From positions 50,523 through 70,522 of the forward strand of contig CAYVYK010000010.1 in NCBI GenBank assembly GCA_964455675.1: a stretch of DNA of 20,000 nucleotides. Direction: 5' to 3'. This document shows positions 149-18,251 of the stretch, one piece after another (positions within the stretch are counted from its first letter, which is position 1; each line of letters starts with the position of its first letter). The translations under genes were made by a program, and so were the position numbers. Below the pieces are notes generated by a model. It saw only the letters and a program-made list of their open reading frames with translations, had not been told where the DNA came from and did not search any database. Origin of the DNA: an uncultured Methanosarcinales archaeon. GTDB lineage: Archaea; Nanobdellota; Nanobdellia; Woesearchaeales; CAYVYK01.

Positions 149-2953
149 CTAGATTTGGTTTTCAACGATTGATCCTGATGCCGTGCTTGATGCTCCAGTT
201 GAGGTCGTTGTTCCTTCGTATGTGCTCGCTGGAGTGTTGCTCGCGACGATGTCATTGCATACTTGATCGATGTAGCTGCCGCCGATGCTCCGCACGCTGT
301 TTTCAAATTCAATGCATGCTTCCTCGTACAGGTATGGGCTGTACTGCACGACTGCCGATGTTCCTGATCGGTAAAACTTCTTTCCTTCCTTGACTTTCAC
401 ATCCTCTGGATATAATAATATCTCCCTTTGACCCGTAAGGCGCACGTTGAAGATGAGGTCGGTTTCCTTTGGCCGTTCGGACTTGTACTTGTTCGGATTA
501 TCGACGGCGAACGTGATCTTGTAGAAGTATTCTACGGTCGTCCGGTTTGTTGCAGGGTCAAATCCGTAAATGGGGTCGCTGCGCTCAGCTTCGATATGCG
601 CTCCAACGGTGATGACTCCGCGTGGCGTCTCAAAGTATGCTACGTTGTCTCCCGCAGAGTCACCCCAGCTGCTGCAGAGCTTGCTCGCCCAGTATTGGCT
701 GCCAAGGTATGTTTGCGCGAAGAATTTGTCCACGCTCTCGCGCCATGGCGCGAGTTGTTTTCTGAAGAAGAGCTGTGAGTACCCGCTAAATCCTTGGAAT
801 TCTGTGAGAACGAAGTTTGCCCCGCCGAATATTTTCCTGCTCGTATCATACGTTTGCTCGGTCTTGAGCCTTGAGGTGTCCGCACCGCCCTTCTCATATG
901 TCCATCCTTTCTCGGTATCGCTTTGGAATTTTGCGTCGTACACCCCGATAGCATTGCCATCCTCATCTCGCACGATGACTTTCCCTTCAAGAGGATTACC
1001 GTTCTGGTCTTGCTTGCTGACTTCAACGGCCTCATACTCATAAACGGCTACGGTGTTTCCATCAACAGTCTTTGTTCCAACCTGTGTTTGCGTAAGCATC
1101 TCGGAAACTTGCGTGACGGTTTTCTTTTCTTTTCCGACCTTGATCTCTTTCTGCTCATATGTGGTGGTCGTCACGGTCTTTCCATCCGCGGAGTATCGGT
1201 CATAGAGCCGTGGTCTTCCTTGGTCGTCATACTCGATGATTTCCTGCACTCCTCCTTCGTAGAATGACATGGCGTCCGGGGTGCTGTCCTGTTCGGAGCT
1301 GAATATCTCGATGCGGCCCCCATCCACATGCAGTTGCTTTCCTTGCGATAGTTCGTAGATGCGCTGGAGTTTATCTTTTCGGACAAGTACCGAGCTCTGC
1401 TCGTATGGCTTTGTTGTATCGAAGATTCGCGCTTCCGTCTGGTCCGATTGCGCTCCTTGTGCGTTCAGCTTCACGTGCTCTCCTACCCAAATTGATGACG
1501 TCTTGCCTCCAAGCTGTTTCATGCGCCAGACGTATCCGCCATCTTTTTGCAGTTGCGAAAGCTGCGCGCTGTCCGTGATAGGCGCAAGTTGTCCTGTTTC
1601 TTTGTTGTACTTGAGTTCGTTTGGATTCGCTGTGCCTTCATAGTACTTGTATCCTTCGCTATCTGTGAGTGTTTCTCCTGTTCGCGTGGTGAGCCTAAGG
1701 TCCCGTCCGTCGACGGTGAGTCGTGCAGGTTTTGATGCTGGCGCGTTGAGGTCCGCGATCGCCCATTGCGGCCCATTGTATCGTGCCGCGGTTCCACCGC
1801 CTGCAGTATGTGTTGCTGAGGAGTAGTCCGCAACGCTGATGCCGTGGTCTTTTTGGAATTGGTCGCTTCGAGTTTTTTTCTCTGTTTCAAGTCGCGTAAT
1901 CTCTGCTCGTTTTTCATCTGCTTGCTTTTGGTATCGCGCGGCCGTGTCTTTTTGGCCATTCGCCGCGGCCTCTGCCGCTTTTTTTGAGAGTTCGAGTCGA
2001 TCAGCATCGAGCCTGGTGATCGTGGTTTGTATCGTTTCGATGGTTGTTCTGTCCGCGTCCGCGCGCTGCGCGTTGATCGTTGCAGGCATGACGATTGGCT
2101 TTCCGGGCACCATTCCTCCTGGAGGAGTTGCCGGCGTTCCGGTCGCGCCAAGCGCTGCTCCTGCTGGCTGGGTGGTTTCAGGTTGTGTCGTCGCTGGTTG
2201 CGTTGCAGCCGATGCTCCAAACACGGTTTCTGTGTTCACTTCATCTCCACCACTGACCGGTTTCCAGTTGCCGTTATCTTGGAGGATGTAGTCCTTGCCG
2301 TCTTGTCCGTTGAACCTGCTTCCTGGTTTCTGGAGGCCATTACCAGGAACGTTATAAAGTGGAGTGACAAAGTAATCATACTCATTGATGGTTCCCTCGC
2401 CCAAACCGGTAGTCGTCACTTCAAAATCAACTATCAGGGTTTCCTCGGCTTGTCCGTTTGTGTACGCTCCAGTTTTTGACCTTCCTGTCTGTGAATAGAC
2501 AAAACGCTCGTAGTCGGCTCGTGGTAGCTCGCTCGTGAATGATTGTGAAGTTCCGGATGGCGTGAGCACCCTCATCTCGTCCCCCCCGCTTTCTCGATAC
2601 ACATAATTCACGAATTCTGCGTTCGTGCCCGTGCCAACAGTGTTGTATGGTGTTGTTCCGTCACTGTTGCTGCCGTAATTTGCGGAGTTGTACTTGCGCC
2701 ACTCTCCGGTATTTGGATCCGTAGTTGATGGTACATAGACGTAGTAAGTGTCCCTGCCCCAGTCATCTACTTGGACTGCGTAGGACCCCGCGTTTGATAT
2801 TTTTCCTTTCGTGATGTCGCCGTAAGTGTATTCTGTCCCGCTCCATGTCCTGAGAGTATTGAGATCGACGCTGCTTGGTGCAGTTACCACAGATGATAGG
2901 TAGAGGAGGATGGTGATTGCCGCAAGTATCCTGAGGAGTGGTGTTCTTTTCAC
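149..2953 (-). CDS. Large secreted hypothetical protein (934 aa): signal peptide, QPATT linker, coiled coil, YD-like beta segment, Cys-containing C-terminal beta domain
   Basis: Long ORF. Its GTG start overlaps the upstream TGA (GTGA). Signal peptide MKRTPLLRILAAITILLYLSSVVTA. Heptad region at about aa 295-365. Confidence 0.88.
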   Translation of the reverse strand: MKRTPLLRILAAITILLYLSSVVTAPSSVDLNTLRTWSGTEYTYGDITKGKISNAGSYAVQVDDWGRDTYYVYVPSTTDPNTGEWRKYNSANYGSNSDGTTPYNTVGTGTNAEFVNYVYRESGGDEMRVLTPSGTSQSFTSELPRADYERFVYSQTGRSKTGAYTNGQAEETLIVDFEVTTTGLGEGTINEYDYFVTPLYNVPGNGLQKPGSRFNGQDGKDYILQDNGNWKPVSGGDEVNTETVFGASAATQPATTQPETTQPAGAALGATGTPATPPGGMVPGKPIVMPATINAQRADADRTTIETIQTTITRLDADRLELSKKAAEAAANGQKDTAARYQKQADEKRAEITRLETEKKTRSDQFQKDHGISVADYSSATHTAGGGTAARYNGPQWAIADLNAPASKPARLTVDGRDLRLTTRTGETLTDSEGYKYYEGTANPNELKYNKETGQLAPITDSAQLSQLQKDGGYVWRMKQLGGKTSSIWVGEHVKLNAQGAQSDQTEARIFDTTKPYEQSSVLVRKDKLQRIYELSQGKQLHVDGGRIEIFSSEQDSTPDAMSFYEGGVQEIIEYDDQGRPRLYDRYSADGKTVTTTTYEQKEIKVGKEKKTVTQVSEMLTQTQVGTKTVDGNTVAVYEYEAVEVSKQDQNGNPLEGKVIVRDEDGNAIGVYDAKFQSDTEKGWTYEKGGADTSRLKTEQTYDTSRKIFGGANFVLTEFQGFSGYSQLFFRKQLAPWRESVDKFFAQTYLGSQYWASKLCSSWGDSAGDNVAYFETPRGVITVGAHIEAERSDPIYGFDPATNRTTVEYFYKITFAVDNPNKYKSERPKETDLIFNVRLTGQREILLYPEDVKVKEGKKFYRSGTSAVVQYSPYLYEEACIEFENSVRSIGGSYIDQVCNDIVASNTPASTYEGTTTSTGASSTASGSIVENQI

Positions 2954-5900
2954 ACAACCACCCGGTCAGTGTCTGTCTTTGCGGAATTGTCTGTTTTGCT
3001 CTTCGTGTCTTTGAGGTATCTGCAGTAGTCTCCTTTCGCTTTCCACGTGTTTTCGTCCATGAGGAACATCACGTCGCCCACGACTTCGCCGATCATGGAT
3101 ACGACTTTGAACCACACGCACGCGCTATGGGGTCCTTCGCTGATCGGGTTTGCGCAGTGCGGCAGGCATGTGAGCGCGAGGATCGCTCCGACGATCGCGA
3201 ACGGGTCTGAGAGCATTGCTTTGATCATGTTCATGTAGTAGTCAAAGAGAGCGACAAATGGTATGAGTTGGAATATTTCTCCAAATACGTACTTGCACAT
3301 GAGTGTTTCCTCAAGTTCCTCACACGCGCTCGCGGGAATTCCGGTTGTGATCGCGTCCTTCAGGCAGACTGCCTTTGCGCACTTGATCTGTCTGATCTTG
3401 TCGAGATTGTAGAGGATTCCTGGCAGACAGAGTGTAAGGACGCTCATCGCAAGGCTTTCCTTGCCGTTCATGTAGGTCTTATAGTTCATGCCGGTGACCT
3501 TGTCGAGGAATCCGACGCCAGGGTAGTATTGCGGTATCCATTTATCGCCTAGGCCCCCTCCAAGCCAGCTTGACCATTTCTCGAATGTTCCGGCTCCTGC
3601 TCCTGGGAGTGACATTTTGCAGTTCACGAAGTTGCAGAACTGGTTGAAGATGTTGAACCACTTGTTTCCTTCGTCTCGCGCTCCTTCTGTTGCAAGGCAC
3701 ATCTTGACGCGCGCGGCATGTGTTGGCGGTCCTGATACGGGATTGAGCTTGTTTGCCGCTTCAACATGCCCTAGCTGCTGTGTCACCGTCTGGTATATTC
3801 CGATGAGATTTTGCAGGATGTTGTTAAGGACGCAGATGATGCGCGCGTACCGTACAATCATCGAGAGTATTTCGATGACTTTCCATAGGCCGCTCGTTGC
3901 GTCTTCTTTTGCATCTTTGTATTTTTGGTTGAGTTCTTTGCGCAAGTCTCCAAGTGGGAGGTTATAGAAGAGGACAGTAAAGCGTACGTCTTCCTGCTCG
4001 GGTATCGCAGTGATGCTGTTCCCGACGCTTGAGAAGATAGAAAGTGGACAGGTTATGTCAAGGCTGTCAACCTTCATGTCCATTGTAGCAAGCTGGATGG
4101 CAAGGTATGGGTCCCTGCTTTCTCTTTGGTTGTTGAGAAGCTGGATGGATGTGATGTAGTTGAGCGGGCTCGTGGCGTTCGTGTCGTTCGTGCTTGGCCT
4201 GCACGCGCCATCTTCAAGGCCAATGGAGAGCGTCTCTGCACCCGTTGATATGGGGGATAGTCCCACGTGGCAGTACATTTTTTGTCCGTTGCCTAGCGAT
4301 GTCACTTGCCGGTCGATCTTGCTTGGCGAGCAAATGACGGTGTTCGTCCAGTGGTTCTGTACGGCATCTTCAAGGAGACCTGAAAGGAATACGGGCATGT
4401 GGTATCGTACTTCATTTCCCACATCGTCCTTGAGGATAAAGTAGATCGTTGCCTCCTTTGGTCCTGAGATGTCAATGATTGGTGTGAGGAACACGCATGA
4501 ATGCGTGCTGTTTCCAAGGGTAACGCACGCAACGTCCATGATCGGGCTGACGTCCATGAGTTGTGATGCGTTCATCGTGCCGATGACATACTCTCCGCTA
4601 TCTCGCATCGTGATGTTGATCTCAAGGCGGTCTCCCCGCACGAGGTATTGTTCAAAGGTGTTTTCTCCTTTCACGATGCGCATGTTTGCACTAACCGCGA
4701 TCGGGCTGTCCACGTCAACGGTGATATTTATTGGCGCAAGTTCCGTGGACGGATTCCCAAGGTTATCGACGGAGAATGGGCTTCCTCGCACGATGGCATT
4801 CGTTCCCGTCGGCATCGAGATGAGGATATCATTCCACACGCATTCGTATGTTTCTCCTCCCTTGGACGTGCAGCCATCCGCAACTTGTGTGCTGCTTCGT
4901 CCTATTCCTGATAGGTCAAGGAAGATGCTGTCGTTTGAGATTCCGTTTGGCTCCCTGATATCTGCGGTAAATGTTGTGGTTGATCCCGCATAGTATCCGC
5001 TTCCCCCTGATACGGGATGCTTGTCTGTGGTAATCTGAGCAAATCGCGGTCCCGTGCTATCGACTTCTATGGTGTTGAGGGCAAGGGATGTCTCCATCCG
5101 GTTTCCCGTGCTATCGACGGTCACGACCGCAATGCTTGGTGTTGACGTGCTGTTGAGGAGCACGGTAACGTCCCAGATGCATTCCACGTGGTCAGTGTAT
5201 GCTGTGCATATTCGCGGGATTCTGTTCGTGTACGTTTCGCGAGTGTTGATGTTTGTTATCGTTCCTGCGATGCCGCCGATGCCATCATCCGTGGAGATGT
5301 TGACCATGATGGATGCTGGTACTTCCCGGTTCGTGACGAGCCTTATCTCGTTGCCGTTTCCATCGTTGAGGACTGCCCGCTGTGGCTGTGGTGCTGTGCG
5401 GTCAATTGTGAAGCTGCTACATGCATCGCCGCTTGTCTGGTTGAATCGGTCGTATGCCCGAGCGCAAATCCTTGTTGTGCCTTCCTGTGCCTGGGTGTAC
5501 TCTTCAGTTCCTCTTGCGGTGCAGGAAGCGGAGTTGGGCGTTAGGGTTTTGAAGGGAGACGATGTAAGATCTGTCTCGAAAAGTTCAATGCGCCCAACTC
5601 CGACGCATCCTGTGCCTCCTGCATGGCTAGTGTCGGATGCTTCATAGATGATCGTGACGGTTCCGTTTGTTGATCGTTCTGGGGAGATGGAGAGGGTGAT
5701 TCCAGCTCCTGCTCCATCAACCGTGATGGTTTGCGTATCTGTCGCAAGGACTCGTAATCCCTCAACAAGCTGGAGGACGAATCGGAATGGTCCTGGATTC
5801 ATCCTTCCAGAATACTCTTTGCTGCATTGGTATGCCCGTGCGCCGGTATTCGAGCAGCTGTCAAATGGCGCGTTGTTCAGCCGTACGTGGCTCGGATTGA

Positions 5901-6132
5901 GTTCCGTATCGCTGTCTGTGTACACTGCCGCGGTAAACGTCGTGTTGTCCTGCATCTTGCGATATCCGGAAATTGCGGACGCGCTCTGGATCGATGTGAG
6001 TTCAACGTTTGCTGCAAGTGCCGCGCTCACGTGGAATGGTATTGTGAGGACGAGCGTAATCATCATGAGCGCTGCAAGTTCAAGTGTTGTGAGCCAGATT
6101 TTTCTCTGTTCCGGTGCTGGTTTATCGTTCAT
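2950..6132 (-). CDS. Large exported protein (1060 aa): tandem Ig-like beta domains plus a Cys-rich hydrophobic helical C-terminus
   Basis: Start reassigned to ATG 6132 (MNDKPAPEQRKIWLTTLELAALMMITLVLTIPFHVSA, signal peptide), which overlaps the upstream gene by 11 bp. Ig-type boundaries DRTAP/DSTGP/DVDSP and recurring C-x7-9-C pairs. Confidence 0.87.
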   Translation of the reverse strand: MNDKPAPEQRKIWLTTLELAALMMITLVLTIPFHVSAALAANVELTSIQSASAISGYRKMQDNTTFTAAVYTDSDTELNPSHVRLNNAPFDSCSNTGARAYQCSKEYSGRMNPGPFRFVLQLVEGLRVLATDTQTITVDGAGAGITLSISPERSTNGTVTIIYEASDTSHAGGTGCVGVGRIELFETDLTSSPFKTLTPNSASCTARGTEEYTQAQEGTTRICARAYDRFNQTSGDACSSFTIDRTAPQPQRAVLNDGNGNEIRLVTNREVPASIMVNISTDDGIGGIAGTITNINTRETYTNRIPRICTAYTDHVECIWDVTVLLNSTSTPSIAVVTVDSTGNRMETSLALNTIEVDSTGPRFAQITTDKHPVSGGSGYYAGSTTTFTADIREPNGISNDSIFLDLSGIGRSSTQVADGCTSKGGETYECVWNDILISMPTGTNAIVRGSPFSVDNLGNPSTELAPINITVDVDSPIAVSANMRIVKGENTFEQYLVRGDRLEINITMRDSGEYVIGTMNASQLMDVSPIMDVACVTLGNSTHSCVFLTPIIDISGPKEATIYFILKDDVGNEVRYHMPVFLSGLLEDAVQNHWTNTVICSPSKIDRQVTSLGNGQKMYCHVGLSPISTGAETLSIGLEDGACRPSTNDTNATSPLNYITSIQLLNNQRESRDPYLAIQLATMDMKVDSLDITCPLSIFSSVGNSITAIPEQEDVRFTVLFYNLPLGDLRKELNQKYKDAKEDATSGLWKVIEILSMIVRYARIICVLNNILQNLIGIYQTVTQQLGHVEAANKLNPVSGPPTHAARVKMCLATEGARDEGNKWFNIFNQFCNFVNCKMSLPGAGAGTFEKWSSWLGGGLGDKWIPQYYPGVGFLDKVTGMNYKTYMNGKESLAMSVLTLCLPGILYNLDKIRQIKCAKAVCLKDAITTGIPASACEELEETLMCKYVFGEIFQLIPFVALFDYYMNMIKAMLSDPFAIVGAILALTCLPHCANPISEGPHSACVWFKVVSMIGEVVGDVMFLMDENTWKAKGDYCRYLKDTKSKTDNSAKTDTDRVVV

Positions 6133-8320
6133 AGGTGGGCACAAGGAGTGCTTCTGTTCCAATTGGTGCTGTTTCAACATAGTCGAGGGCCTGGAGGTCC
6201 TCAACGGTTGTGACGTCCACGAGTGCTGGTGCGAATGCGTAGAATACGATTCGTCCGCTGTGGAGGTCCGCGTCTGTGAATGTGTATGTTGTCTTTGATC
6301 CTCCTGAGATGAATTTTTTCTTTCCTCCGCCAAGTTCAATGCGTGGTATTGTGTAACATTCTTCTTTGATGAACGCATCAACGCATCGCTCTTCTTCCTC
6401 GATCGCGAATGGTTCTTCGCTCATGATCCGGACTTCGATGTTGTAGCGTCCTGGCGCAATCCTGATGGGGTTCATTTCGTCCTTGTCGACGCTTCCTAGT
6501 GCGTGCAGCTGCTGGTCGAATTCCGAGTCATTCCTTTCAAGGATCACGATCGCTTGCTCAAAAGGATTGATGGGCTGTTCTGTTGGCTGCACGATCCATT
6601 CGTCGTTGTGTTTGACCATGAGCCGTTTTTTGACGGTGAAATTGTAGAATTCCAGGTGTGAGAGTTCGATGCTGACGTTTGATGCTTTTCCCTTGAAGGC
6701 GTCAAGCGGGACTGTCTTTCCAAGGTATTCGGGATGATTCACGCCAAGGAGTCCTCCAAGGCACACGGGTAGTCTTGTGACGAGCATTCCTTCTTCGTCC
6801 GTTGCTCCGATGGCGCACGTTTGGCTGGCGCAGCTGTACGTTATTGCTGCGTCACTGACTGGCTTTTGAATGGCAATGGTTGCGACTCTCACGGTTCCTG
6901 ACGTGCGCTTATCCATGTCGCAGAGCATTGTCTTTGTGGCGAGCTGTTGCTCAGTGCATTCTCGTTGTTGTTCAACTTTCTGGGTTTGCTCTCCACTGAT
7001 CGGGTCGGTGACATTGACGATTCGTTCGTCCATGACGGTGCACACGAGTTCCACGTCGCGCGTGGGGGCTGTTGGGAGGAAGAAGAAGTCTTTCGTGAAT
7101 GGTTTGTTGTTGCGCACGTTTGCTTCGAGATAGTACCTGAATGTGTATCCTTTTCCGTTGAATGCGTCTTCGTCGTATATTTCCACTTGTACGGGGAAGG
7201 ATACATCATATGCGAAGTGGTAGCGCTGCACACCGATGGGGAAGATGATATTTGACATCACGCTTTGGGGCACGCAGAGTTCTCCTTTGCAGTTGAGGTC
7301 AAAATAGATCGGCCACCAGTCAAGGTATGCGAATGTGACGGCGAGGTCTTCAAATCCTTTTTTCATCGGGACGCGCATGCCTTCGTTAAAGACTGACTCG
7401 CGCAACGGATCATTCGGGAACTGGTGTTCGTGGTAGGTTTTTGTCTGGTACACTTGGAGGAGCGGGATGTATCCCATGAGCATGTCTTCAACATGTTGTG
7501 CAACCTCGCTCTTGATCCAGAATGTGCTTGGCGCGTAGTCAAGCGAGCTGTCGGTCATGGGCGGGATATTTTTCTTTCGCCCGGAAAATCCGACGAGGAG
7601 GTTGAGCGTGTCTTCCTCGATGAACTGGTAGCTTTTTTCTAGGTCCGCGATGGATCCTGCAAGGTCGTAGATGTGCTTGAGCCGCACCGGGAGCCTGACG
7701 CCAAATTCGCTCACACTCTGTTCTGAGTCTCCATGCCTTGCCTGCACGGGGAGTTGCACAACGACCGCGACATCTTCCTCGGTGATTGTCACATCGGTTG
7801 AGAGCGGGCCTGTCTGCTCGACGGCAAGGCCCGCTTCTGCAAGGCCCGTAAAGTCTTCAAGGCATGCGGGCAATTCTTGTGTGATGTAGGTTTCAAGCTG
7901 TTCCTCGATACTCATGCCGGTTCCCCGCAGACCTGGCCGTTTGCTGCTGAACACGCACTGTTCCCTGCATTCATTTGGCGTCTGCATGTAAAACCAGTAC
8001 GGGGCTAAAAGTCCTCCTGGACTGGCAACGACGTCGGATTCTGTTGGAACGAGTTCATTGATCGAGAAGAGTTGGGGATCAAGTGTGGTATAGCCTCCTT
8101 GCATTCCGACTTTTCGTACTCCTTCCTCACCGATCTGTCGAAGGCATACTTCAACAAATGTCTGGAGCGGCTGGTATGGAGCGGGCAGCTTGATTGCTGG
8201 TATGTTCACGGCAGCTTTTTCCTGACGGTCAAGGTATATGGAGATTCCGACACCTACGATAACCAGGAGAAGTATTCCTACGAATATGAAAATGGTGATT
8301 TGTCCTCGTTTAAAGTACAT
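6122..8320 (-). CDS. Large class III signal peptide (type IV pilin-like N-terminus) membrane-anchored protein, 732 aa
   Basis: N-terminus MYFKRG|QITIFIFVGILLLVIVGVGISIY fits the archaeal prepilin peptidase motif (K/R-G|Q plus hydrophobic helix). Confidence 0.85.
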   Translation of the reverse strand: MYFKRGQITIFIFVGILLLVIVGVGISIYLDRQEKAAVNIPAIKLPAPYQPLQTFVEVCLRQIGEEGVRKVGMQGGYTTLDPQLFSINELVPTESDVVASPGGLLAPYWFYMQTPNECREQCVFSSKRPGLRGTGMSIEEQLETYITQELPACLEDFTGLAEAGLAVEQTGPLSTDVTITEEDVAVVVQLPVQARHGDSEQSVSEFGVRLPVRLKHIYDLAGSIADLEKSYQFIEEDTLNLLVGFSGRKKNIPPMTDSSLDYAPSTFWIKSEVAQHVEDMLMGYIPLLQVYQTKTYHEHQFPNDPLRESVFNEGMRVPMKKGFEDLAVTFAYLDWWPIYFDLNCKGELCVPQSVMSNIIFPIGVQRYHFAYDVSFPVQVEIYDEDAFNGKGYTFRYYLEANVRNNKPFTKDFFFLPTAPTRDVELVCTVMDERIVNVTDPISGEQTQKVEQQRECTEQQLATKTMLCDMDKRTSGTVRVATIAIQKPVSDAAITYSCASQTCAIGATDEEGMLVTRLPVCLGGLLGVNHPEYLGKTVPLDAFKGKASNVSIELSHLEFYNFTVKKRLMVKHNDEWIVQPTEQPINPFEQAIVILERNDSEFDQQLHALGSVDKDEMNPIRIAPGRYNIEVRIMSEEPFAIEEEERCVDAFIKEECYTIPRIELGGGKKKFISGGSKTTYTFTDADLHSGRIVFYAFAPALVDVTTVEDLQALDYVETAPIGTEALLVPTYER

Positions 8321-9213: not shown

Positions 9214-10122
9214 TTATGCGTGCATGATCGTAAAGTATGGTCCGTAGAGTTCACCGACGTGCGTAATAACGCTTCCAAGCTGGCTCACGATATACACATC
9301 AAGCTTGGATGATTTCTGTAGTGTGACGGGGTAGAGTTCAGACAGTTTCTGCCGTAGTTCCAGGAATTCTCGCGCCTTGTCCTTATCAAATTTATAGTAG
9401 AGTTCGTACATGATCTTGATGAATCGTGCTGTTTCGGTATAGAGTTTTTCAGTCGATGGATTGATTTTTACCTTCTTGGAAAGCGCGTGTTTGGCAATGT
9501 CTCGGTAGCAGTCTGCGATCTTTTCGAAGTCCCTGCACATGCTGTAGTACAGCGTTGCTTTCGAGCTTTCGAAATACGCGTGCTTGTTGATGACTCGTTT
9601 TAGGAAGTCGGTGAGCTTGTTGTTCGTTCGTTCGCCGTCAAGCGCCGCTCGCAATTTGTGTTCATCAGAAGTCTTGAGTGCGATCAAGAGCTCCTCGGTC
9701 ATTTCGATGAGCAGCCGAAACATCCGCCGGAACACGGCGTGGAATTCCTCGGGGGATACGCTTGACACGCTTCGTATCACACATGATCCTTTGCGTTTTT
9801 CGACGATCTCAAAGCCCATGAGGTCGCTCACTTTGTTCTTGAGCTCATCATACATCCTCTCATCGTCGAAGAAAACAGTCACCTCGTCATACCCTTTTTG
9901 GTAGAAATATGAGATATAGTTCTTGTCGAACTTTCCAAGGCTCTGTACAACAAGCTCTGACTTTTTCATGTCTGGTTGGTGCGAGAATGATATGAGGATT
10001 CCCCCCTCATGTTCGCTCACATGCACGTCCTGTCCTTTCTTCACTGCGTATTTCTTCACAAACGGCGTAGGGAGGCTGACAACAAGCGTCCTTCCTGCAA
10101 TCTGGATGACCTTCCGCTCCAT
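9214..10122 (-). CDS. Archaeal phosphate uptake regulator-like protein (N-terminal AbrB/SpoVT DNA-binding domain plus PhoU-type helical domains)
   Basis: MERKVIQIAGRTLVVSLP...KKYAVKKGQDV (AbrB); YFYQKGYDEV, LMGFEIVE, RDFEKIAD (PhoU LERIAD-like). Confidence 0.88.
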   Translation of the reverse strand: MERKVIQIAGRTLVVSLPTPFVKKYAVKKGQDVHVSEHEGGILISFSHQPDMKKSELVVQSLGKFDKNYISYFYQKGYDEVTVFFDDERMYDELKNKVSDLMGFEIVEKRKGSCVIRSVSSVSPEEFHAVFRRMFRLLIEMTEELLIALKTSDEHKLRAALDGERTNNKLTDFLKRVINKHAYFESSKATLYYSMCRDFEKIADCYRDIAKHALSKKVKINPSTEKLYTETARFIKIMYELYYKFDKDKAREFLELRQKLSELYPVTLQKSSKLDVYIVSQLGSVITHVGELYGPYFTIMHA

Positions 10123-10140
10123 ATCCGTCGAGAATGCAAT

Positions 10141-10157
10141 ATATCTTATAAGGATTT
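10141..10157. promoter_or_regulatory. Palindromic TATA (CTTATAAG): leaderless promoter of the AbrB/PhoU gene, possibly also firing on +
   Basis: CTTATAAG at 10145-10152 lies about 23 bp from ATG 10122 on - and about 22 bp from the start of the structured region on +. Confidence 0.55.
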
Positions 10158-10169
10158 CTCAATCAGCAG

Positions 10170-10583
10170 AGGAATGAACTCAAAAGCATTGGACTATGAG
10201 CACAGTTCCAGTCCACAGCAGCCCTGTTCGAAGAATGTGGTGTGCGGCGAACAGGACGTGCCGTCAGGCTGCAATAATGTGGTTTGGGCGTCATTGAAGT
10301 GAACCACTCACCCAAGGTTTGCATTCATCCATCATTTTGCCCACTTTAATCATAGGGGGGAATAATGGAATTCGCCCTGCACGTACTTCCGATGGTTCCC
10401 CACCCCCTTGTGGAAATGTGTGCGTGACGGCTAGCGCGCGGTTGTGCGTGGTGCATCAGTTATCGCCCTGTCCATCGATCGTTGAGTGGCAAGGGCAGGG
10501 CTCGCCGAAGGCCCGTACTAATTTTTTACATATGATTTTCAAAACGAACAGGTCGTGCCGTCAGGCCGCAGTAATTATTTTTT
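10170..10583 (+). ncRNA. Candidate unidentified structured RNA
   Basis: 525-bp gap without a convincing ORF. Several stems; G-U pairs favour the + strand. TATA upstream and T6 tracts at 10522 and 10578. Confidence 0.4.
10248..10575 (+). repeat. 31-bp imperfect direct repeat, two copies (10248-10278 and 10545-10575)
   Basis: CGAACAGGaCGTGCCGTCAGGCtGCAaTAAT vs CGAACAGGtCGTGCCGTCAGGCcGCAgTAAT: 28/31 identical, 297 bp apart. Confidence 0.92.
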
Positions 10584-10647
10584 AGCGTTATGCAGTGTAC
10601 CGCTCGTCGAGAATTAAAAAATCATGGAAAAGTAGAATGAATCGAGT

Positions 10648-11271
10648 TTATACCCACTGGCCAAGCCCCTGTTTTTTTCCTGGCGGCAGGATGTCTTTCA
10701 TTTTTTGAAAGTCAGCAGCGAGTACTGCGCGGAGTGGTGGGTTGTACAGCATTGCCGCAGGATGATAAAGTGGAACGACCTTAAAGCTCATTCCATCGAC
10801 GGTAATATCGACCGCAATGCCGTGCAGATGGCTGATCCCGCCGATGCGTTTCATGCCGGCAACGTCAAATTTCGCAAGGACGAATTTGGTTGAGAAATTG
10901 CCAAGGGTTGCGATGATTGTTGGCTTGATCGTTTTGATTTGCTCGATGAGGTAGGGTGTGTGCCGCGCGATCTCGTCGGGCTGTGGATCGCGGTTGTTTG
11001 GTGGTCGGTACTTGAGGATGTTTGCGATGTACACGTCTTCGATCGATAGTCCGATCGAGTGCAGAAGTTTGTCAAGTTCTTTTCCTGCTGATCCGACGAA
11101 GGGAATGCCTTGGAGGTCTTCCTGCTCGCCTGGTGCTTCCCCGATGAACATGATTGCGGCGTTCGGGTTGCCTTTTCCAAAAACGAGGTGTGTTGCCCGA
11201 TCCTTAAGTGGGCACACAAGTTCGTTGAGAATCCGCTGTCGTATGGTGTCGAGTTCTTCAATGCGTCCCAT
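10648..11271 (-). CDS. udg: Uracil-DNA glycosylase family 4, 207 aa
   Basis: MFIGEAPGEQED..G.PFVGSAG, YIANILKYRPPNNRDP, LYHPAA. Start reassigned to ATG 11271 because a TATAAATA box lies about 22 bp upstream and this removes the overlap with the upstream gene. Confidence 0.95.
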   Translation of the reverse strand: MGRIEELDTIRQRILNELVCPLKDRATHLVFGKGNPNAAIMFIGEAPGEQEDLQGIPFVGSAGKELDKLLHSIGLSIEDVYIANILKYRPPNNRDPQPDEIARHTPYLIEQIKTIKPTIIATLGNFSTKFVLAKFDVAGMKRIGGISHLHGIAVDITVDGMSFKVVPLYHPAAMLYNPPLRAVLAADFQKMKDILPPGKKQGLGQWV

Positions 11272-11303
11272 AAGAAAAGGTTGTGTGGCATTATTTATAT
11301 GTG

Positions 11304-12506
11304 TTATTCTGTTTTTTTCCACGGCCGCCATCCGCCATGCGTTCTTTTTTTCGGTTCGTCTCCTGGCTTGATCCCATACGTGGCGAGTGCTTCTTCGAGA
11401 GTATCGGCATACCGGATCTCGCGTACTTCTGGGACTTTCTGCAGACGGTCGAGCTGTTCATGGGCTTCCTGGTAGCAGGCCGCGGATGGTGGCAGAATGT
11501 ATGTTACTTTTGCGTTTTTGACGCCAAAATCTAGCGTTGAGAGGAGGAGTGAATTCCCGACGTATGTTGCGTGTGAGAGGTCCACAACGAGCGTTTGTGG
11601 GGAAAGGTGCATGAGGTATCCCATGATTCGGTCCCGCACTTCATAGTCTCCCACGTTGCCGTGGAGTTCCATGATGAGAATGCTGCTCTGAAAGACTTTT
11701 TGAACCATCGCGACAAGTTCGCTACTTGCTTTGTTCGTCCCGAGCGCAAGGAATGGGAGAATATCGAGGGTAAACCCTTGGGGATTCAATGGATCCATGC
11801 GCCAGTCGCTAATCTCGACGATGTCCTGTTTTTGTTGGTGTACTGCTCTTACTCGGATTGCCGCTGGAACGATGAACGCGTACCCATGCTCTCCAATGCT
11901 TCGAACGCTAAAATCTAGTGGCCGATAGCTAACATCACCCTTTGACTCAAGATATGCTTCAAGCGGTGGATCGCGCTCTTTCGTTCTGATGGTTTTGACA
12001 TAATACGGGACGAGGTTTTCTGTCCCGATGAGTGGGAGCGTGACCCCCTTTTCCCCGTTCTCGTGGAATAGGACTTCATAAAGGTACAGCTGGTCAAACG
12101 ATTCCTCTGTCAGTCCAATCATTCTGCGTGCTTCTGCCGTCGTCCCGATGATTGCTCCATCCGCGAGCGTGACAAGCCCAAAGTAGTGCGCATGCAGTTC
12201 TGATGAGAGTAGGGGAAGCGCGTGCCTGAGCACGCGGTATTCTTGGACTGCTTGAGTGTGCTGTTTCGTAAGTTCATGAAGCTGCCGCTGTGTTTCTGTA
12301 AGGTCCTTTTCCTTCTGCTTTGCGGCTTCCTCCGCGCTGGCAAGGCGTTCTTCGAGCCCTGCGATCAATTCGTTCAGTTCTGCAACGCGCCCCTTGCTGC
12401 TCGTTGCCTGGCCTCGCAGCTCCGTCAGAAGGGCTTGGCTGTCAGCAAGCTGTCGTTCAAGCTGTTCAAACGTTGCCTGCGTGGTAGCTTTCTTGCGTCC
12501 GAACAT
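11304..12506 (-). CDS. Coiled-coil + PAS-like + STAS-like domain protein, 400 aa
   Basis: Heptads at aa ~10-95. FGLVTLADGAIIGTTAEARRMIGLT is PAS-like. ILIMELHG...LVVDLSHATYVGNS...IRYADTLEEALA is STAS-like. Confidence 0.7.
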   Translation of the reverse strand: MFGRKKATTQATFEQLERQLADSQALLTELRGQATSSKGRVAELNELIAGLEERLASAEEAAKQKEKDLTETQRQLHELTKQHTQAVQEYRVLRHALPLLSSELHAHYFGLVTLADGAIIGTTAEARRMIGLTEESFDQLYLYEVLFHENGEKGVTLPLIGTENLVPYYVKTIRTKERDPPLEAYLESKGDVSYRPLDFSVRSIGEHGYAFIVPAAIRVRAVHQQKQDIVEISDWRMDPLNPQGFTLDILPFLALGTNKASSELVAMVQKVFQSSILIMELHGNVGDYEVRDRIMGYLMHLSPQTLVVDLSHATYVGNSLLLSTLDFGVKNAKVTYILPPSAACYQEAHEQLDRLQKVPEVREIRYADTLEEALATYGIKPGDEPKKRTHGGWRPWKKTE

Positions 12507-13283: not shown

Positions 13284-14966
13284 TCACGTGATTCCGTTCC
13301 AGTCAAATCCGATATCCATAGAGACATCAGATAATGTGGCTGTCTGGGTCGCAGTGGTTGTTGGAATTTTTGTTGAGATAACTCCTTTCTTGACAACAGC
13401 GTTATGTACCACTACTCCGTCATCCACGAGGTAATTATGGTACTTTGCGATTTCAAGGTTGTACACTCGTACTGGTGCCTCAATCGTTTGTACACGGGTT
13501 ACTTTCGTGAAAGATCCATCGGACATTTCGACCATGTCTCCTGCTTCGATCCATGCTGCGGTTACCCATTCCCCGTCAACGAGGAACTGGTGCTCCGATG
13601 TTGTCTTTATGTTGTTAATCTGGATGTACTCATCGGTGTCGTGCATGAATGTTTTGATGACTTTTCCGCTGACGGCCTTCTTGTTATTCAGATTGTAGGA
13701 TTGGACATAGTCTCCGACCTTCACGGACTCGATTGGTTTTGTTGTTCCATCAGCCATGAGGACCCTTGTTCCCTCGACAAAGCATGTCGGTGTTGGTGTT
13801 GATGTTGGTGTTGGCGTCGGTGTTGTTGTTGGAGTAGGATCAGGTGGTGGAGGTGGCGGTGGAGGTGGCGGCATTCCAATAATGCGATCCAGCTGGTTGC
13901 AGCACACGGCACCGTTCTCATCAGTTGGTACACCTTGTGAGTATGTTACGCTCTTATGGATAAGGGCATTGCCGCATGGGCATTCGAAATAGAACTGCCC
14001 GCTTTCTTCTTTTGGATTGATTCCAGTTCCATAATAATTGTAATTGGTTTCCGCATTGACCTTGACAACGTCTCCATGCGTGCACTGTGTTCGTATTATC
14101 TTTGGATAGATATCACAGACCGCAGGCTCTTTTTCCATGTCGACGCATGCGGCGGGTCCTGGGCACATTTCAACTGCTTTGATTTTCACGGGGCCTGGTA
14201 CTCCTCCGATGAGATCCTGCTCGCAGACATAGAGATAACTGTATGCTCCTGGTGATACTCCTGCTGGAACTGGTGGGACAGCGCATTGCACCCGATCATC
14301 CTGATTTTCAGGGTTCGGGCATCGTGTTCGGCTGATTTCTGCAGGTACGCAGTCTTCATCAACTTCAAGGATGTTCATGTCTTGGAAGATTCCTTTGATC
14401 GTGACGCAGTCCCTGTCACAGATGCTGTCCGCATCTCCGACGCTTCCTTCGCAGAGCAAGTCAAGCCCGAACTGAGGGCAGTCTTGTGGGCATGTGGCAT
14501 GGTTTTCTCCAGCGCACACGCCATCGCCGCACTGTCCTCGCGTTCCAAGGAATGGTGCAAGTGAAAATGTTCCAACGAGCAAGTCATCTGCTGGTGCGTT
14601 ATTCTCCCAGATCTCTATCTTATCCATTCGTGGATCGTATGAAACAAGCTCGATCACGTGTGATCGTCCCATGGGATCACTGAGTTGGTAGAGATAGAAC
14701 CGTCCCTGTGCATCCTGCCCAGGGAATCCGGTGAATCTTCCATCATCTCGTGATTTGATCGTGAGATAATATGCTGGCATGTTCGATGGATTTGGAGTGG
14801 AAAGTCCCACTGATCTGGCAATGATCGCGCCATCCAGCTGGAAATTACTCTGGGGATAATCAATGATTCCAATGTCAAGCAGCAGTCCTTTTCCAGCAAG
14901 TGCTGGCATAACGGCTAGGAGGAATACTGCCACCATCAATCCGCAGAGGATAACTTGTTTTTTCAT
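13284..14966 (-). CDS. Secreted Cys-rich protein with a Pro/Thr stalk and a C-terminal Hint (intein-like) domain
   Basis: Signal peptide MKKQVILCGLMVAVFLLAVMPALA (ATG 14966 after GTGAT); CGDGVC..EN..TCPQDC repeat; poly-P/PT linker; Hint domain CFVEGT...VVHN. Confidence 0.9.
   Translation of the reverse strand: MKKQVILCGLMVAVFLLAVMPALAGKGLLLDIGIIDYPQSNFQLDGAIIARSVGLSTPNPSNMPAYYLTIKSRDDGRFTGFPGQDAQGRFYLYQLSDPMGRSHVIELVSYDPRMDKIEIWENNAPADDLLVGTFSLAPFLGTRGQCGDGVCAGENHATCPQDCPQFGLDLLCEGSVGDADSICDRDCVTIKGIFQDMNILEVDEDCVPAEISRTRCPNPENQDDRVQCAVPPVPAGVSPGAYSYLYVCEQDLIGGVPGPVKIKAVEMCPGPAACVDMEKEPAVCDIYPKIIRTQCTHGDVVKVNAETNYNYYGTGINPKEESGQFYFECPCGNALIHKSVTYSQGVPTDENGAVCCNQLDRIIGMPPPPPPPPPPDPTPTTTPTPTPTSTPTPTCFVEGTRVLMADGTTKPIESVKVGDYVQSYNLNNKKAVSGKVIKTFMHDTDEYIQINNIKTTSEHQFLVDGEWVTAAWIEAGDMVEMSDGSFTKVTRVQTIEAPVRVYNLEIAKYHNYLVDDGVVVHNAVVKKGVISTKIPTTTATQTATLSDVSMDIGFDWNGIT
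13401..13784 (-). other. Hint / BIL-type autoprocessing domain (128 aa, no homing endonuclease)
   Basis: Block A CFVEGTRVLMADG, block B TTSEHQF, block F VYNLEI, block G VVHN followed by Ala. Confidence 0.93.
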
Positions 14967-14978
14967 GAGTATCACATT

Positions 14979-17900
14979 TTATTGTTTCGTGCTGAATTCA
15001 TACTGCATGTATGGATAATCGAGGACATTGTAGTCGCCTGTGCAAGTCCATTTATCGAGGGGGCTTGGCACGTCGTTTCTCCGCACGCAGTTCCAGTGGT
15101 TCTTGAGTTCGCATCCCGCAAACGTGTTCTCGCTCGGATCACATGCCATGCACGGATCTCTGCTTTCCGGATGCGTATCGCACGTCTGTCCAACATCACT
15201 TAGTGTATTGACAAGTCCTGGAGGCTCGGGTGCTGTGGTATAATAACTGTACGGCAAGAGTCCCATTGTGGTTCCAAGGTATTTCTTGAATTCAGTGACA
15301 GCCTGCGTTGTTGTCATCGACGAAGGGAATGCAAGATCCATATAGTTTGCCCATCCGCTCGTTGCATACGCTGCATCTGAGTTCCAAACTGCTATGATCT
15401 TGTCAGCATATCGTGAGTCACTGTTCTCGATGTTCCTGCAATAGTTTGGCTTTGGATCAGGGTACGTTGAGCAATCCTGTGGTGGAGCCGTCTGGGCCAA
15501 GCATGATAAGAGTAATGCTGTTGTCTGGCCTGACATCTCGCAGTATGCTGCAGGATAGTATGAAGTGGGTAGCTTATATCGATTTTGAGCTTTGATGTAA
15601 CTACCTACTCCGTCAACAGAATAGCAGGTTAGCTCAGACCCTCCCTCTCCTTGGCTTGGGATATTGAGCCGCCATACATTGACTTTATTCTGGTATGTGT
15701 CAAATGGCGGTGCCGCCATCATTTGGGTGTTGGCCTGCGTCGTGAAGTCCACGAACTTGTTCCAGTCCGCTGATGGATTCGCGAAGTCTGATGATAATAT
15801 CCAGTAATCATACACTGCTTGGCTGCTTTCAAGGCTCGCGGTGTGGAGTCTTGTGCACACGCTTCCGCCAAGGACAACTTGTACAAACTGTGTGGACGGT
15901 TCGTCATCAATAATGACTCCGGCACTTTCTCCTTCAAGCCAGTTGTCTGCATAATCTTGCGCGGTGACTTTGAACACGTACCATCCGGCGCTCTGGAATT
16001 CGGTGTATCCTGCCTGATAGTCCCACGTGTTCGTGAATGTATCTCCCATCGCTACTTGCCATGGGCTGCTGTAATGGACTGACCCATCAAATGCTGTTCC
16101 GGGTGGTATTGATCCGGCCGCAGGTTCAGCTGCATAATACTTCCACTGGACTTGGATGGTCGACGGATCTACCCCGCTCGTATCATCAGTCATTCCGATC
16201 GTGAAAAGGATGGAGTCAACATATCCAGACACATCTTTTGTGACAATGGTGGGATTCACGCCAAACGATGTGAGATCTGGTGGCGTCGTATCTCCTTGCG
16301 TTTCATCGCATGCTCCAGTTCCTGGATTGCATGTGTATCCGCTCTGGCACCCGCACGTGGTACAGTCATTCACGATCACTCCCCTCCAGAAGTCTGGATT
16401 TGGATCATCACGCAGGCAGCGGTATGGTCTGAAGTCCTCAGGATAGCATCCGTTCTCGAGCACTCCTCGCGGATCTGAGCCAGTGACTGGTAGGCAGACG
16501 TCCTTGCACGGGTATCCTTCGTTCACCACACGGTCACAGTCCTCATCCCATTGTGGAATGAGCGGGCTTGGTGATGGCGGGCTGAGATAACTGTAAGCGT
16601 AATAATCTATCACACCTCCTCCGAGATCCTGGTAGGAGCACATTTCGGTTCCCCAGATACCGGTATCCCATGAGGGTTCTTCTTCGAAATTGTCTCCACA
16701 GCAGCGTGATGTGCTGCTGAGGTAATAATTCCCATCTCCTTCGCATGCAACTTGGCAGGCGTCGTAGAAGTCTGCACTGCCATCATTGATTTCTCCGTTG
16801 CAGTCATTATCAAGAGTGTCACAGAGTTCAGATGTTGAGTATCCCGAGCCATATTGTGGCGCGCCGCATCCCGGCCAGAAGCATGAGCCTCCGCCGCACT
16901 GGCATGTTTCCAAATCATTATAGCACGCACAGCTCGCTCCTTCTGCGATGCATTCGGGATTATCTGAGAGATCACACAGTCGTGTTTCTCCCTGATTGCA
17001 CTGGCATGGTGGATTCTCGTTCGATGATCCATCACAGTCCTCATCATTGTATGGAGCAGTATCGCAGGTTTCAGTTCCTGGCGCTGCAGGTGTTGCTGAA
17101 CAGTCGACACCACCGCCACTCGTGCACACAACAGTTCCTGAGCGTGCGCAGTCTCCAACTCCTTCCGTGCATGCGCCTCCCTTAGGTATGCCCTGCCACG
17201 TGTTTCCTTCATCGGTCTGTCCGTTGCAGTTGTTGTCCTTGCCATCGCAATGGCCTACTTCTGTTGATGCAGTAATATAGTCAGCAGGATAGACGCAGGA
17301 TCCCCAACAGTAGTCAGACCGGCATGTCTTGATTGCCTGCTCGCAAACTCCAGGTCGTGAGTCACATCCTTGTGTTGCTCCTGGCGAACAATCACCACAA
17401 CCGCTTGCAATGCAGCCTGATGTGTCCTCCCATGTGATTGGAGCTTCAGTACAGCTTGGAGAATTGCCGCTGCAAGTTTTCTTTCCCTTCTGAGTCTTGG
17501 TTCCTGGCATGCCGCCTCCAGCCGTGCAGGAAACAGTTCGATATTCCCATTGGTCTGGAACGCATACTGCATTGTCTGCTCGATATGATGTCGAGCTTGC
17601 GCAGCACGCCCCACCACTTTGGCATGGATGGGTTGGATCAGGTGGGAAGAAGTCGTTAATTCCTGGATATTGAATCTCCTGAGTGAAGTCCCAGTTCTGG
17701 ACTGTTCCCCAATCACGATTGGAACAGTACCAGACTCCTGCATCATCAACAGGATTTCCTCGGCAGATAAATGTCTTTAAGTGCATCTTAAAATAAAGCT
17801 TGTTTCCTATCCTATAGAAAACCCCATTCTGTCCAGAACCATCAGAGTCATCCACTTCAGGATAGGTATACGGATCACCGCTGCAACTTGCCTTTCCAAC

Positions 17901-18251
17901 ACTCTGTGCGGATGAATCAAGAACATACTCTCGGGCGACTGAACCGCCGCTCAGGACGCGAATCTTGTATTCTTGGCTTCCGTCCGTGTAGTCAGGTGAT
18001 GGGCATCCTGGGCAGTCTCCGTTTGTTACCCTACTTGTCGAGTCCATGCAAAACTCAAGGGTTACAGCTGGTCTTCCATTCTGCGCGGGAAACGAGGCGC
18101 TTGGCACACGTGAATCCCCGCATATCCAAATATCATCATACTCAAAGGGAATCGCATGGACGGACGAACTTGTTAATGAAAAAAGAGCCACAGAAATCAC
18201 AAGCATGACAAGCACAGGAAAACATATTCGGTTTACGCCTTGATTTACCAT
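14979..18251 (-). CDS. Large secreted Cys-rich protein (1090 aa): MopE-type metal-binding repeats, Ig-like domain, degenerate peptidase M64-like C-terminal domain
   Basis: Signal peptide; repeats CDGKDNNCNGQTDE, CDTAPYNDEDCDGSSNE, CDTLDNDCNGEIND, DEDCDRVVNE; DTTPP Ig domain; PFDTYQNKVNVWRL is M64-like. Confidence 0.88.
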   Translation of the reverse strand: MVNQGVNRICFPVLVMLVISVALFSLTSSSVHAIPFEYDDIWICGDSRVPSASFPAQNGRPAVTLEFCMDSTSRVTNGDCPGCPSPDYTDGSQEYKIRVLSGGSVAREYVLDSSAQSVGKASCSGDPYTYPEVDDSDGSGQNGVFYRIGNKLYFKMHLKTFICRGNPVDDAGVWYCSNRDWGTVQNWDFTQEIQYPGINDFFPPDPTHPCQSGGACCASSTSYRADNAVCVPDQWEYRTVSCTAGGGMPGTKTQKGKKTCSGNSPSCTEAPITWEDTSGCIASGCGDCSPGATQGCDSRPGVCEQAIKTCRSDYCWGSCVYPADYITASTEVGHCDGKDNNCNGQTDEGNTWQGIPKGGACTEGVGDCARSGTVVCTSGGGVDCSATPAAPGTETCDTAPYNDEDCDGSSNENPPCQCNQGETRLCDLSDNPECIAEGASCACYNDLETCQCGGGSCFWPGCGAPQYGSGYSTSELCDTLDNDCNGEINDGSADFYDACQVACEGDGNYYLSSTSRCCGDNFEEEPSWDTGIWGTEMCSYQDLGGGVIDYYAYSYLSPPSPSPLIPQWDEDCDRVVNEGYPCKDVCLPVTGSDPRGVLENGCYPEDFRPYRCLRDDPNPDFWRGVIVNDCTTCGCQSGYTCNPGTGACDETQGDTTPPDLTSFGVNPTIVTKDVSGYVDSILFTIGMTDDTSGVDPSTIQVQWKYYAAEPAAGSIPPGTAFDGSVHYSSPWQVAMGDTFTNTWDYQAGYTEFQSAGWYVFKVTAQDYADNWLEGESAGVIIDDEPSTQFVQVVLGGSVCTRLHTASLESSQAVYDYWILSSDFANPSADWNKFVDFTTQANTQMMAAPPFDTYQNKVNVWRLNIPSQGEGGSELTCYSVDGVGSYIKAQNRYKLPTSYYPAAYCEMSGQTTALLLSCLAQTAPPQDCSTYPDPKPNYCRNIENSDSRYADKIIAVWNSDAAYATSGWANYMDLAFPSSMTTTQAVTEFKKYLGTTMGLLPYSYYTTAPEPPGLVNTLSDVGQTCDTHPESRDPCMACDPSENTFAGCELKNHWNCVRRNDVPSPLDKWTCTGDYNVLDYPYMQYEFSTKQ

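Follow-up and report, generated by a model that had tools for sequence, protein, structure and literature searches.

The BOX elements of Streptococcus pneumoniae and the ERIC/IRU sequences of enterobacteria are modular or long structured intergenic repeats that act at the RNA level where they have been studied, and REPINs are mobilised by RAYTs, which are IS200-like Y1 transposases. The subject of this analysis is an archaeal repeat family to be set beside them. Two of its copies lie in a 20,000-nt stretch (the window, with position 1 its first letter) of contig CAYVYK010000010.1, positions 50,523 to 70,522 of the forward strand, in assembly GCA_964455675.1, which was submitted as an uncultured Methanosarcinales archaeon and is placed by GTDB in the Woesearchaeales. 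They occupy a gap, 10123-10647, that is the largest stretch near them poor in open reading frames (ORFs). An initial annotation had read 10170-10583 in this gap as one structured RNA of ~350-410 nt, directed away from the neighbouring PhoU-type gene, or else as a structured non-autonomous element.

The gap and its repeat family

Initial searches showed that parts of the gap also match about 20 other places in the genome (1.72 Mb in 25 contigs, 99% complete), and an iterated nhmmer search of the whole assembly yields 38 hits at 29 loci. A covariance model of the family's hairpin with its first tail unit (B+R, with R1) makes 32 matches in this genome, both copies in the window included. No other genomic locus matches the whole of 10170-10583; the matches are partial only. 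That the sequence in the gap belongs to a multi-copy repeat family, with two members in tandem, and is no single RNA gene is close to certain. The feature is securely identified as a modular intergenic repeat, non-coding and lineage-restricted, in which one hairpin is under selection. What looked like a single large new RNA is thus corrected to two repeat copies and an unrelated spacer, with an ordinary folding energy; related sequences are numerous in the genome itself and absent from the other genomes searched. The second suggestion of the initial annotation fared better, in that the element is multi-copy, non-coding, hairpin-bearing and intergenic, but it has no terminal inverted repeats and the transposase families that were searched for were not found.

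The full form of the repeat is ~235 nt long and consists, in order, of an AT-rich edge (ATAATA), block A, linker V, hairpin B and tail R, after which a T-run and a second R often come. Block A (~80 nt) has the conserved sequence GCGGGGAATAC...GATGGTTCCCCAGCCCCTTCTGGA...GTGACGGC; V (~45 nt) is free in sequence and constrained in length. Hairpin B, of 10 bp, is made up of GCCCTGTYC, a loop of ~18 nt and GRACAGGGC. The tail, ~30 nt, is TCGCCGAAGGCTCG or GTGCCGTCAGGCCG, with a small GCC-GAA-GGC or GCC-GTCA-GGC hairpin, and then TAATAAT, often with the T-run after it; the second R, which lacks a 5' arm, often lies ~22 nt beyond the first. About 13-14 copies are full length, ~14 consist of B+R only and 3 of block A only. 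The short copies start at clustered model positions (90-119) and not at spread ones. There are at most 2-3 R units at a locus, and identity among R2 units is 0.44.

Copy 1 in the window is a solo core unit on the plus strand at 10215-10281 (covariance model match C10:60737-60803 in contig numbering, 62.3 bits, E 1.3e-19); the nhmmer match extends over 10207-10289 and corresponds to model positions 104-186. Its hairpin B, with arms at 10222-10231 and 10248-10257, has one C.A mismatch and is followed by the R tail GTGCCGTCAGGCTGCAATAAT. Copy 2 is a full copy on the same strand at 10347-10580, comprising block A, V, the core, a T6 run and R2. Its block A (10347-10432) contains ..ATA GGGGGGAATAATG...GATGGTTCCCCACCCCCTTGTGGAAAT...GTGACGGC and is matched by the nhmmer profile of the A core at 10351-10432 (E 4.6e-17); segment V (10433-10458), where pairwise identity is 0.40 among 14 copies, carries a semi-conserved GGTTGTG. 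The core unit at 10459-10525 (covariance model match C10:60981-61047, 70.3 bits) contains hairpin B, GCCCTGTCC/GGGCAGGGC, at 10465-10473/10493-10501, with one U.G pair and CGATCG in its loop, and next to it the R1 tail TCGCCGAAGGCCCGTACTAAT. A T6 run, the semi-conserved oligo-T of the family, follows directly at 10525-10530. R2, CGAACAGGTCGTGCCGTCAGGCCGCAGTAAT, an R unit without the 5' arm at 10545-10576, is a direct repeat of 10248-10278 in copy 1 (47 nt aligned, 79% identity, spacing 297), and a second T6 run comes after it at 10577-10582. The 65-nt spacer between the copies, 10282-10346, is outside the core matches and contains GTGGTT/AACCAC.

Some details of the modules may be recorded here. 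A GATC- or CGATCG-like motif is found in the loop of hairpin B in most copies (consensus ..yGATCGT..; 10476-10481 in the window) and could be a site of methylation or of protein contact. The distance from GGTTCC in block A to GCCCTGT in hairpin B is 63-78 nt and a multiple of three in 8 of 12 copies. At several loci an R-type unit directly precedes block A, so that the modules may also be chained in the order R then A; at one of them (L040, C2:39080-39117) a variant tail unit, GCCCGCAAGGGC then GCAATAAT, lies just upstream of a solo block A. The public sequencing listed comprises two DNA runs from one sludge-metagenome study. Their contigs show extra depth, with loose ends, over 10464-10625, which is read as cross-mapping of paralogous copies; they contain no joint that skips the element, which speaks neither for nor against an empty site.

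The stems that suggested a single large RNA are all present in the sequence: TGGACT/AGTCCA (10190-10195/10210-10215), GCAGCC/GGCTGC (10218-10223/10267-10272), CTGTTCG/CGAACAG (10224-10230/10248-10254), GACG/CGTC, GTGGTT/AACCAC (10279-10284/10302-10307), GCACGTACTTCC/GGAAATGTGTGC (10379-10390/10412-10423), GCCCTGTCC/GGGCAGGGC (10465-10473/10493-10501) and GCC-GAA-GGC, as are the bounding AT-rich palindrome near 10138-10153 and the T6 runs at 10525-10530 and 10577-10582. Their density, described as packed, does not exceed chance. The plus strand of 10170-10583 has a minimum free energy of -134.9 kcal/mol, to be compared with -130.9 +/- 6.2 in dinucleotide shuffles, and 27 of 100 shuffles fold equally well (z of -0.65, not significant); for the minus strand z is -0.04. 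When the stems are compared with other copies, only CTGTTCG/CGAACAG and GCCCTGTCC/GGGCAGGGC find support, and both are hairpin B of the family, one in each of the tandem copies. The 12-bp stem GCACGTACTTCC/GGAAATGTGTGC (10379-10423) sits in conserved block A, in which five other candidate helices are without covariation support; GCAGCC/GGCTGC draws on a variable leader segment (identity 0.42 among copies); the nhmmer matches begin at 10207 and so exclude most of TGGACT/AGTCCA; and the first arm of GTGGTT/AACCAC is in the fuzzy end of the match 10207-10289, its partner in the spacer between the copies. The TGGACT(14 nt)AGTCCA hairpin (10190-10215, plus strand), just upstream of the short unit, may be a collapsed remnant of block A, since a divergent copy, C1b, has GGACTAT...ATAGTCC at the matching place.

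The absence of any RNase P, signal recognition particle or tRNA signature, noted from the start, is confirmed by Rfam and by a tRNA/tmRNA scan of the window, which finds 0 genes. Rfam release 15 gives 0 matches in the whole window at the gathering threshold, so that novelty is not removed in that way; a permissive search of 10050-10720 produces three matches only, with E between 1 and 6.9 and far under the cut-offs, and at 15 loci with other copies there are only two mir-764 hairpin matches, at 19-21 bits with a gathering score of 82. The sole box C/D small RNA match (sR24, minus strand 10312-10357, 15.5 bits with a gathering score of 36, E = 1) is attributed to chance, and inspection by eye of the 3' end of the element finds no CUGA (D box). 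Likenesses to a hammerhead, a K-loop and an origin-recognition box, drawn by eye, were dropped, their core motifs not fitting.

Hairpin B, block A and the age of the copies

The covariation of hairpin B is real. Among 30 units, or 300 cells of the alignment, 96.0% of cells hold standard pairs; 21 cells differ by a double change, compared with 5.5 +/- 1.8 in shuffles, none of 500 of which reaches 21; and sliding the partner by 1-3 columns lowers pairing to 33-56%. The pair types alternate, one position being G-C in 23 units, U-A in 6 and C-G in 1, another U-A in 21 and C-G in 9, and the tenth pair C-G in 18 and G-C in 4.

For block A, conservation can be demonstrated in the sequence but not in any structure. 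In 16 copies, five candidate helices (GGGGAAU/GGUUCCCC, UUCAG/CUGGA, GCCG/CGGC, GGUUCC/GGAAUU and CCAG/CUGG) do no better than shuffled or slid controls and were set aside. RNAalifold, applied to the full copies, returns hairpin B essentially alone, with two 2-bp stems in block A, and a brute-force search of column pairs reveals no run of covarying pairs.

Conservation varies greatly along the element. Pairwise identity is 0.82-0.92 in the hairpin arms, 0.72 in R and 0.75 in the core of block A; in V, the R1-R2 spacer and the flanks it is 0.38-0.40. Full copies share 62% identity on average and 78% in the closest pair, with the caveat that near-identical recent copies may be lost in short-read metagenome assembly (4 loci are within ~900 bp of a contig end). 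That the neutral-looking segments are saturated, yet 96% of hairpin cells pair, is hard to fit with dead copies in free decay, and suggests that most copies are under selection, or that concerted evolution is confined to the blocks. The lack of recent copies, together with a hairpin preserved almost throughout, argues for selection on single copies. The family probably began as a spreading selfish repeat.

Polarity and a possible role at transcript ends

The polarity of the element is read from the T-run, from the wobble pairs of the hairpin (weakly) and from the orientation of the loci. Oligo-T on the sense strand is an established signal for transcription termination in archaea. In the 24 nt that follow R, 11 of 30 units have a run of at least T5 and 16 a run of at least T4; A5 is found in none, and the intergenic background for T5, in 16-nt windows, is 3.1%. 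In hairpin B (alignment read by eye) the plus strand has 6 G.U or U.G cells, as compared with 2 A.C or C.A cells. With gene orientations taken from rough ORF calls, ARAGORN tRNAs and Pfam, the 29 loci include, between tandem genes, 11 in antisense and 4 in sense orientation; another 8 are in divergent gaps, 2 are in convergent gaps and 4 are undetermined; in 19 of 25 determinable loci the 5' side of the element faces the start of an oppositely reading gene or tRNA. The orientation away from the PhoU-type gene that had been proposed for the single RNA holds for the repeat. Neighbours of the copies are housekeeping genes (among them those for a GTPase, an epimerase, tRNA synthetases, TGT, TruD and a DEAD helicase), and none of the 38 hits is inside a Pfam-recognised domain: copies sit between ordinary genes.

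Our tentative preference, held at somewhat less than even chances, is that B+R and the oligo-U stretch make up a transcript-end module on the plus strand. The stable hairpin with its oligo-U would stop RNA that enters the element, or protect it, or both. Such RNA might come from the 3' end of a co-directional upstream gene; at most loci it would instead be a non-coding transcript leaving the promoter region of the divergent neighbour, here the PhoU-type gene, and in the window it would enter from the side of the AT-rich palindrome at 10138-10153. The next gene would in this way be shielded from such transcription.

A number of observations weigh against this proposal. The T-run is absent from 19 of 30 units, and the excess of G.U cells (6 and 2) is small. 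The bias in tandem gaps (11 and 4) is weak, with p ~0.12 in a two-sided binomial test calculated by hand; the loci are not independent, 3 of the 11 antisense ones belonging to a single gene cluster; and divergent gaps, being longer, are easier targets. There is no good conserved promoter upstream: with a matrix made from 23 tRNA promoters of the same genome (consensus ~AAC-R-TTTATAAA, the 8-mer starting ~33 nt before the tRNA, mostly 31-35), the A boundary scores at least 9 in 3 of 14 copies (9.4-11.4) and at most 5.1 in the other 11, and the tRNA promoters themselves score mostly 12-19. Folding shows no preference for a strand, with a mean z of -1.7 (plus) and -1.9 (minus) in 13 full copies and of -2.6 (plus) and -3.1 (minus) in 30 core units, and the full copy in the window is near zero (-0.03 plus, -0.22 minus). 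No role is assigned to block A or to the fixed A-to-B spacing, whose being a multiple of three in 8 of 12 copies goes unexplained if the element is non-coding. The strand and the ends of any transcript are, finally, predictions from sequence only.

A bolder form of the transcript-end proposal is doubtful, although it finds work for block A. The genome would have some 30 host-maintained elements, each upstream of a promoter and pointing away from it, which would act as stops for divergent transcripts: the hairpin and oligo-U would halt antisense or promoter-divergent transcription before it runs into the neighbouring gene in a very compact DPANN genome, and block A, with the fixed A-to-B spacing, would be a binding platform for a protein. 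Archaea would then possess, if this is true, a dedicated and repeated element for transcription insulation.

The alternative that survives best, unlikely as we hold it to be, is that the family is purely selfish REP- or MITE-like DNA (MITE: miniature inverted-repeat transposable element) with no host function, its hairpin recognised, perhaps on single-stranded DNA, by a transposase or recombinase that has been lost or was not assembled. Copies scattered in unrelated contexts beside housekeeping genes, a modular build with truncated forms and confinement to one genome among those searched are what this view expects, and the hairpin variants fall into few subtypes, which could have been inherited from master copies. 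The 4 loci within ~900 bp of a contig end indicate that repeats may be under-assembled, and a published census of such elements reports for a Woesearchaea genome one of the highest MITE densities in archaea (PMC11602168). What the copies lack, however, is the equipment. In 12 of 13 full copies the 5' end, aligned with the reverse complement of each R end, gives no alignment above the 95th percentile of 200 shuffles (three of these 12 have no 3'-end anchor and so no scored alignment), and the sole exception, AAAAAATTAT/ATAATTTTTT, is an A/T run. The AT-rich edges (ATAATA on the left, TAATAAT on the right) look like parts of the element, and no target-site duplication was recognised, there being no empty site for comparison. 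In this 99%-complete assembly the TnpB-type (PF07282), Y1 (IS200/RAYT; PF01797), DDE_Tnp_1 (PF01609), reverse-transcriptase (PF00078) and Cas1 families are all unmatched, and one tyrosine recombinase is the only enzyme of that kind found; the search for the transposases of a related autonomous insertion sequence was limited to PF01609, PF07282 and PF01797, and PF01797, as a positive control, makes matches in 6 of 14 reference genomes. Two observations already made also speak against a selfish family: identity between full copies never exceeds 78%, and pairing in 96% of hairpin cells beside saturated neutral segments is unexpected under free decay.

Three more specific mobile or defensive origins were rejected on the same kind of evidence: a derivative of IS200/IS605 or a TnpB guide RNA, since PF07282 and PF01797 are unmatched in the genome; a repeat derived from a retroelement, since PF00078 is unmatched and the start points of short copies are clustered; and a CRISPR array or mini-array, since there are no more than 2-3 R units per locus, R2 identity is 0.44, Cas1 is missing and the spacers have no convincing targets.

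Rather unlikely, too, is a family of independently transcribed small RNAs of ~170-230 nt, trans-acting or protein-binding, with ATAATA as the TATA box and the T-run as the terminator. Block A is indeed preceded at a constant position by an AT-rich box, which is similar to two tRNA promoters of this genome, ending AATAGC and TATAGC, and the three A boundaries that score 9.4-11.4 with the tRNA-promoter matrix do so at the same offset. The T-run is enriched after R, as an oligo-T terminator should be, in a minority of copies only, and the hairpin is under selection. But 11 of 14 A boundaries score at most 5.1, a TATA box at that place would put the start of the RNA ~16-22 nt inside block A and exclude its best-conserved 5' bases from the transcript, and block A is missing from about half of the copies and has no covarying helix. 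The variable segments do not have convincing targets, their excess of genomic matches over shuffles being modest (9 hits for 27 real queries, two of them between paralogous copies, and 20 for 135 shuffled ones); that V or the R1-R2 spacer acts as a guide or antisense sequence was discarded on this ground. Nor does the presence of the family in 1 of 151 genomes of the order resemble that of a conserved RNA gene.

Reading the element from the other strand is much less probable. On this proposal the reverse complement of R, an A-run with TTATTA, would be a portable promoter and the remainder the structured 5' leader of the gene on the A side. That gene reads away from the element, co-directionally with its minus strand, in 19 of 25 determinable loci; the A-run with TTATTA is loosely like a pair of transcription factor B recognition element (BRE) and TATA box; and a solo unit at C1:41243 abuts the start codon of a TGT gene. 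The tRNA matrix, however, makes no minus-strand hit of at least 8 in the R regions of 13 full copies, a start ~26 nt after the box would fall in an arm of the hairpin, and the distance from element to A-side gene varies from -2 to 849 nt. Most A-side genes have room for a promoter of their own, and a probable one is visible in the window at 10138-10153.

Coding can be given very little credence indeed. The putative product, of ~60-65 amino acids (..AGNT.HLPF...DGSPAPSG....GTGLAEGS*), would be read from the plus strand and end at the conserved TAATAA. Blocks A and B share a reading frame in 8 of 12 copies (six computed and two read from translations), and the copies on C17, C6 and C13 are open from block A to TAA. 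Translation of 13 full copies (that on C5 has neither anchor) reveals stops or frame shifts in 9 of the 12 with both anchors, the window copy included; there is no codon periodicity (column entropy 0.84/0.87/0.90 in A and 0.77/0.87/0.89 in B) and the conserved 5' edge is devoid of ATG, GTG and TTG in all copies but one. Pfam gives no match for the overlapping ORFs, and coding does not explain the compensatory changes in the hairpin arms. Coding on either strand was accordingly rejected, the peptides ..PEGAGEPS.. (minus) and ..DGSPAPSG.. (plus) being by-products of conserved DNA. That 10170-10583 is, after all, one novel structured RNA of ~350-410 nt is scarcely credible: many local stems can be drawn in this largest ORF-poor gap nearby, but the folding z is -0.65, the region splits into two independent copies and an unrelated spacer, and matches elsewhere in the genome cover parts only.

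Of the 28 tRNA genes found by ARAGORN in this genome, 5 are 67-164 nt from a repeat copy (contigs C2, C4, C6, C12 and C13; for example, the tRNA at C4:56685-56761 and the element at C4:56828), and 3 of them are divergent from its 5' side. This proximity may only reflect the fact that both features occupy long intergenic gaps. The tRNA promoter box is useful in its own right for annotating other small genes in this genome.

The gap is bordered on one side by the PhoU-domain ORF (302 aa; 9214-10122, minus strand) and on the other by an ORF of the uracil-DNA-glycosylase (UDG) family (227 aa; 10648-11331, minus strand), both identified by ORF call and Pfam. The AT-rich palindromic box ATATATCTTATAAGG (10138-10153, minus strand), ~25-35 nt upstream of the ATG of the PhoU-domain gene at 10122 and ~40 nt before the first repeat copy, is probably the TATA box of that gene and outside the repeat, judging by its distance from the start codon and by the place of the TATA 8-mer ~33 nt before tRNA genes in this genome. 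Paralogues of the PhoU-type protein are numerous, and its best-matching relatives share 30-37% identity with it. Elsewhere in the window, a 563-aa ORF (13284-14975, minus strand) ends in a Hint/intein-type domain (PT-HINT, E 4.7e-16; Intein_splicing, E 2.2e-10), its first ~390 residues being without a family match. Four very large ORFs on the minus strand (934, 1143, 732 and 1090 aa, in 149-8320 and 14979-18251) match no Pfam family, the last of them (1090 aa) having a sub-threshold metal-binding motif only. An ORF on the plus strand (18374-19243) has a domain of prolipoprotein diacylglyceryl transferase (LGT; E 4.4e-24), which is a lipoprotein enzyme of bacterial type here in an archaeal genome.

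Distribution and comparison with known repeats

Among the collections searched, the family is lineage-restricted. A DNA search of 40 relatives gives no match, and the B+R covariance model gives none in 150 other genomes of the order, leaving the family in 1 of 151. No genome among those compared is a relative nearer than order level, and the 11 relative loci that were examined for an empty site include none with a UDG or PPIase neighbour. Exact-pattern scans of species-representative genomes make 3 and 7 matches, all single and in unrelated bacteria (Corallococcus, Streptomyces and others), which are taken as chance; the same scans of JGI metagenomes make 0 and 0, the second pattern fitting only the GAA-type tail. 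Full-text searches of the literature give no description of this or of a similar Woesearchaeota repeat, although supplements may list the family. The remark on MITE density in PMC11602168 is the only pertinent statement; in another paper (PMC13343696) MITEs are mentioned only in passing and DPANN only in the title of a reference.

The finding is a modest one when read from sequence alone, but it adds a well-delimited family to a growing picture in which small genomes of the Woesearchaeota type of DPANN have many lineage-specific structured intergenic repeats. It also presents an unusual pairing, in that all copies are old with the hairpin intact and a one-sided T-run marks the strand. The family therefore lends itself reasonably well to the question of whether such repeats are retained to control transcript ends or merely tolerated.

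Among described systems MITEs are likewise small, multi-copy, intergenic and non-autonomous in appearance; in contrast to them, this repeat family lacks terminal inverted repeats, has no recognised target-site duplication and leaves the searched insertion-sequence and transposase families unmatched. The archaeal MITE census already referred to relied on terminal inverted repeats, and a detector of that type would likely miss this family (PMC11602168).

The likeness to REP/BIME sequences and REPINs is closer. These also carry a short GC-rich hairpin that is scattered between genes, frequently close to gene ends, as single units or small tandem groups, and a role at the 3' ends of transcripts, such as might apply here, has been proposed for REP/BIME. 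The archaeal repeat differs from them in having no Y1/RAYT match and no inverted doublets, in its long loop and 30-nt tail with a T-run, and in the extra 125-nt A-V part that about half of the copies possess.

BOX and ERIC/IRU provide the remaining parallel: they, too, are multi-copy, non-coding and intergenic, with modular full and partial forms and a stable hairpin, and no transposase of their own. The archaeal host, the unrelated sequence, the single covariation-supported helix, a far greater divergence of the copies (identity of at most 78%) and the confinement to one genome of the searched data set the present family apart. With its multiple intergenic, non-coding copies and its conserved foldable core, the repeat is a structured intergenic repeat of the REP/BOX/ERIC-like kind.

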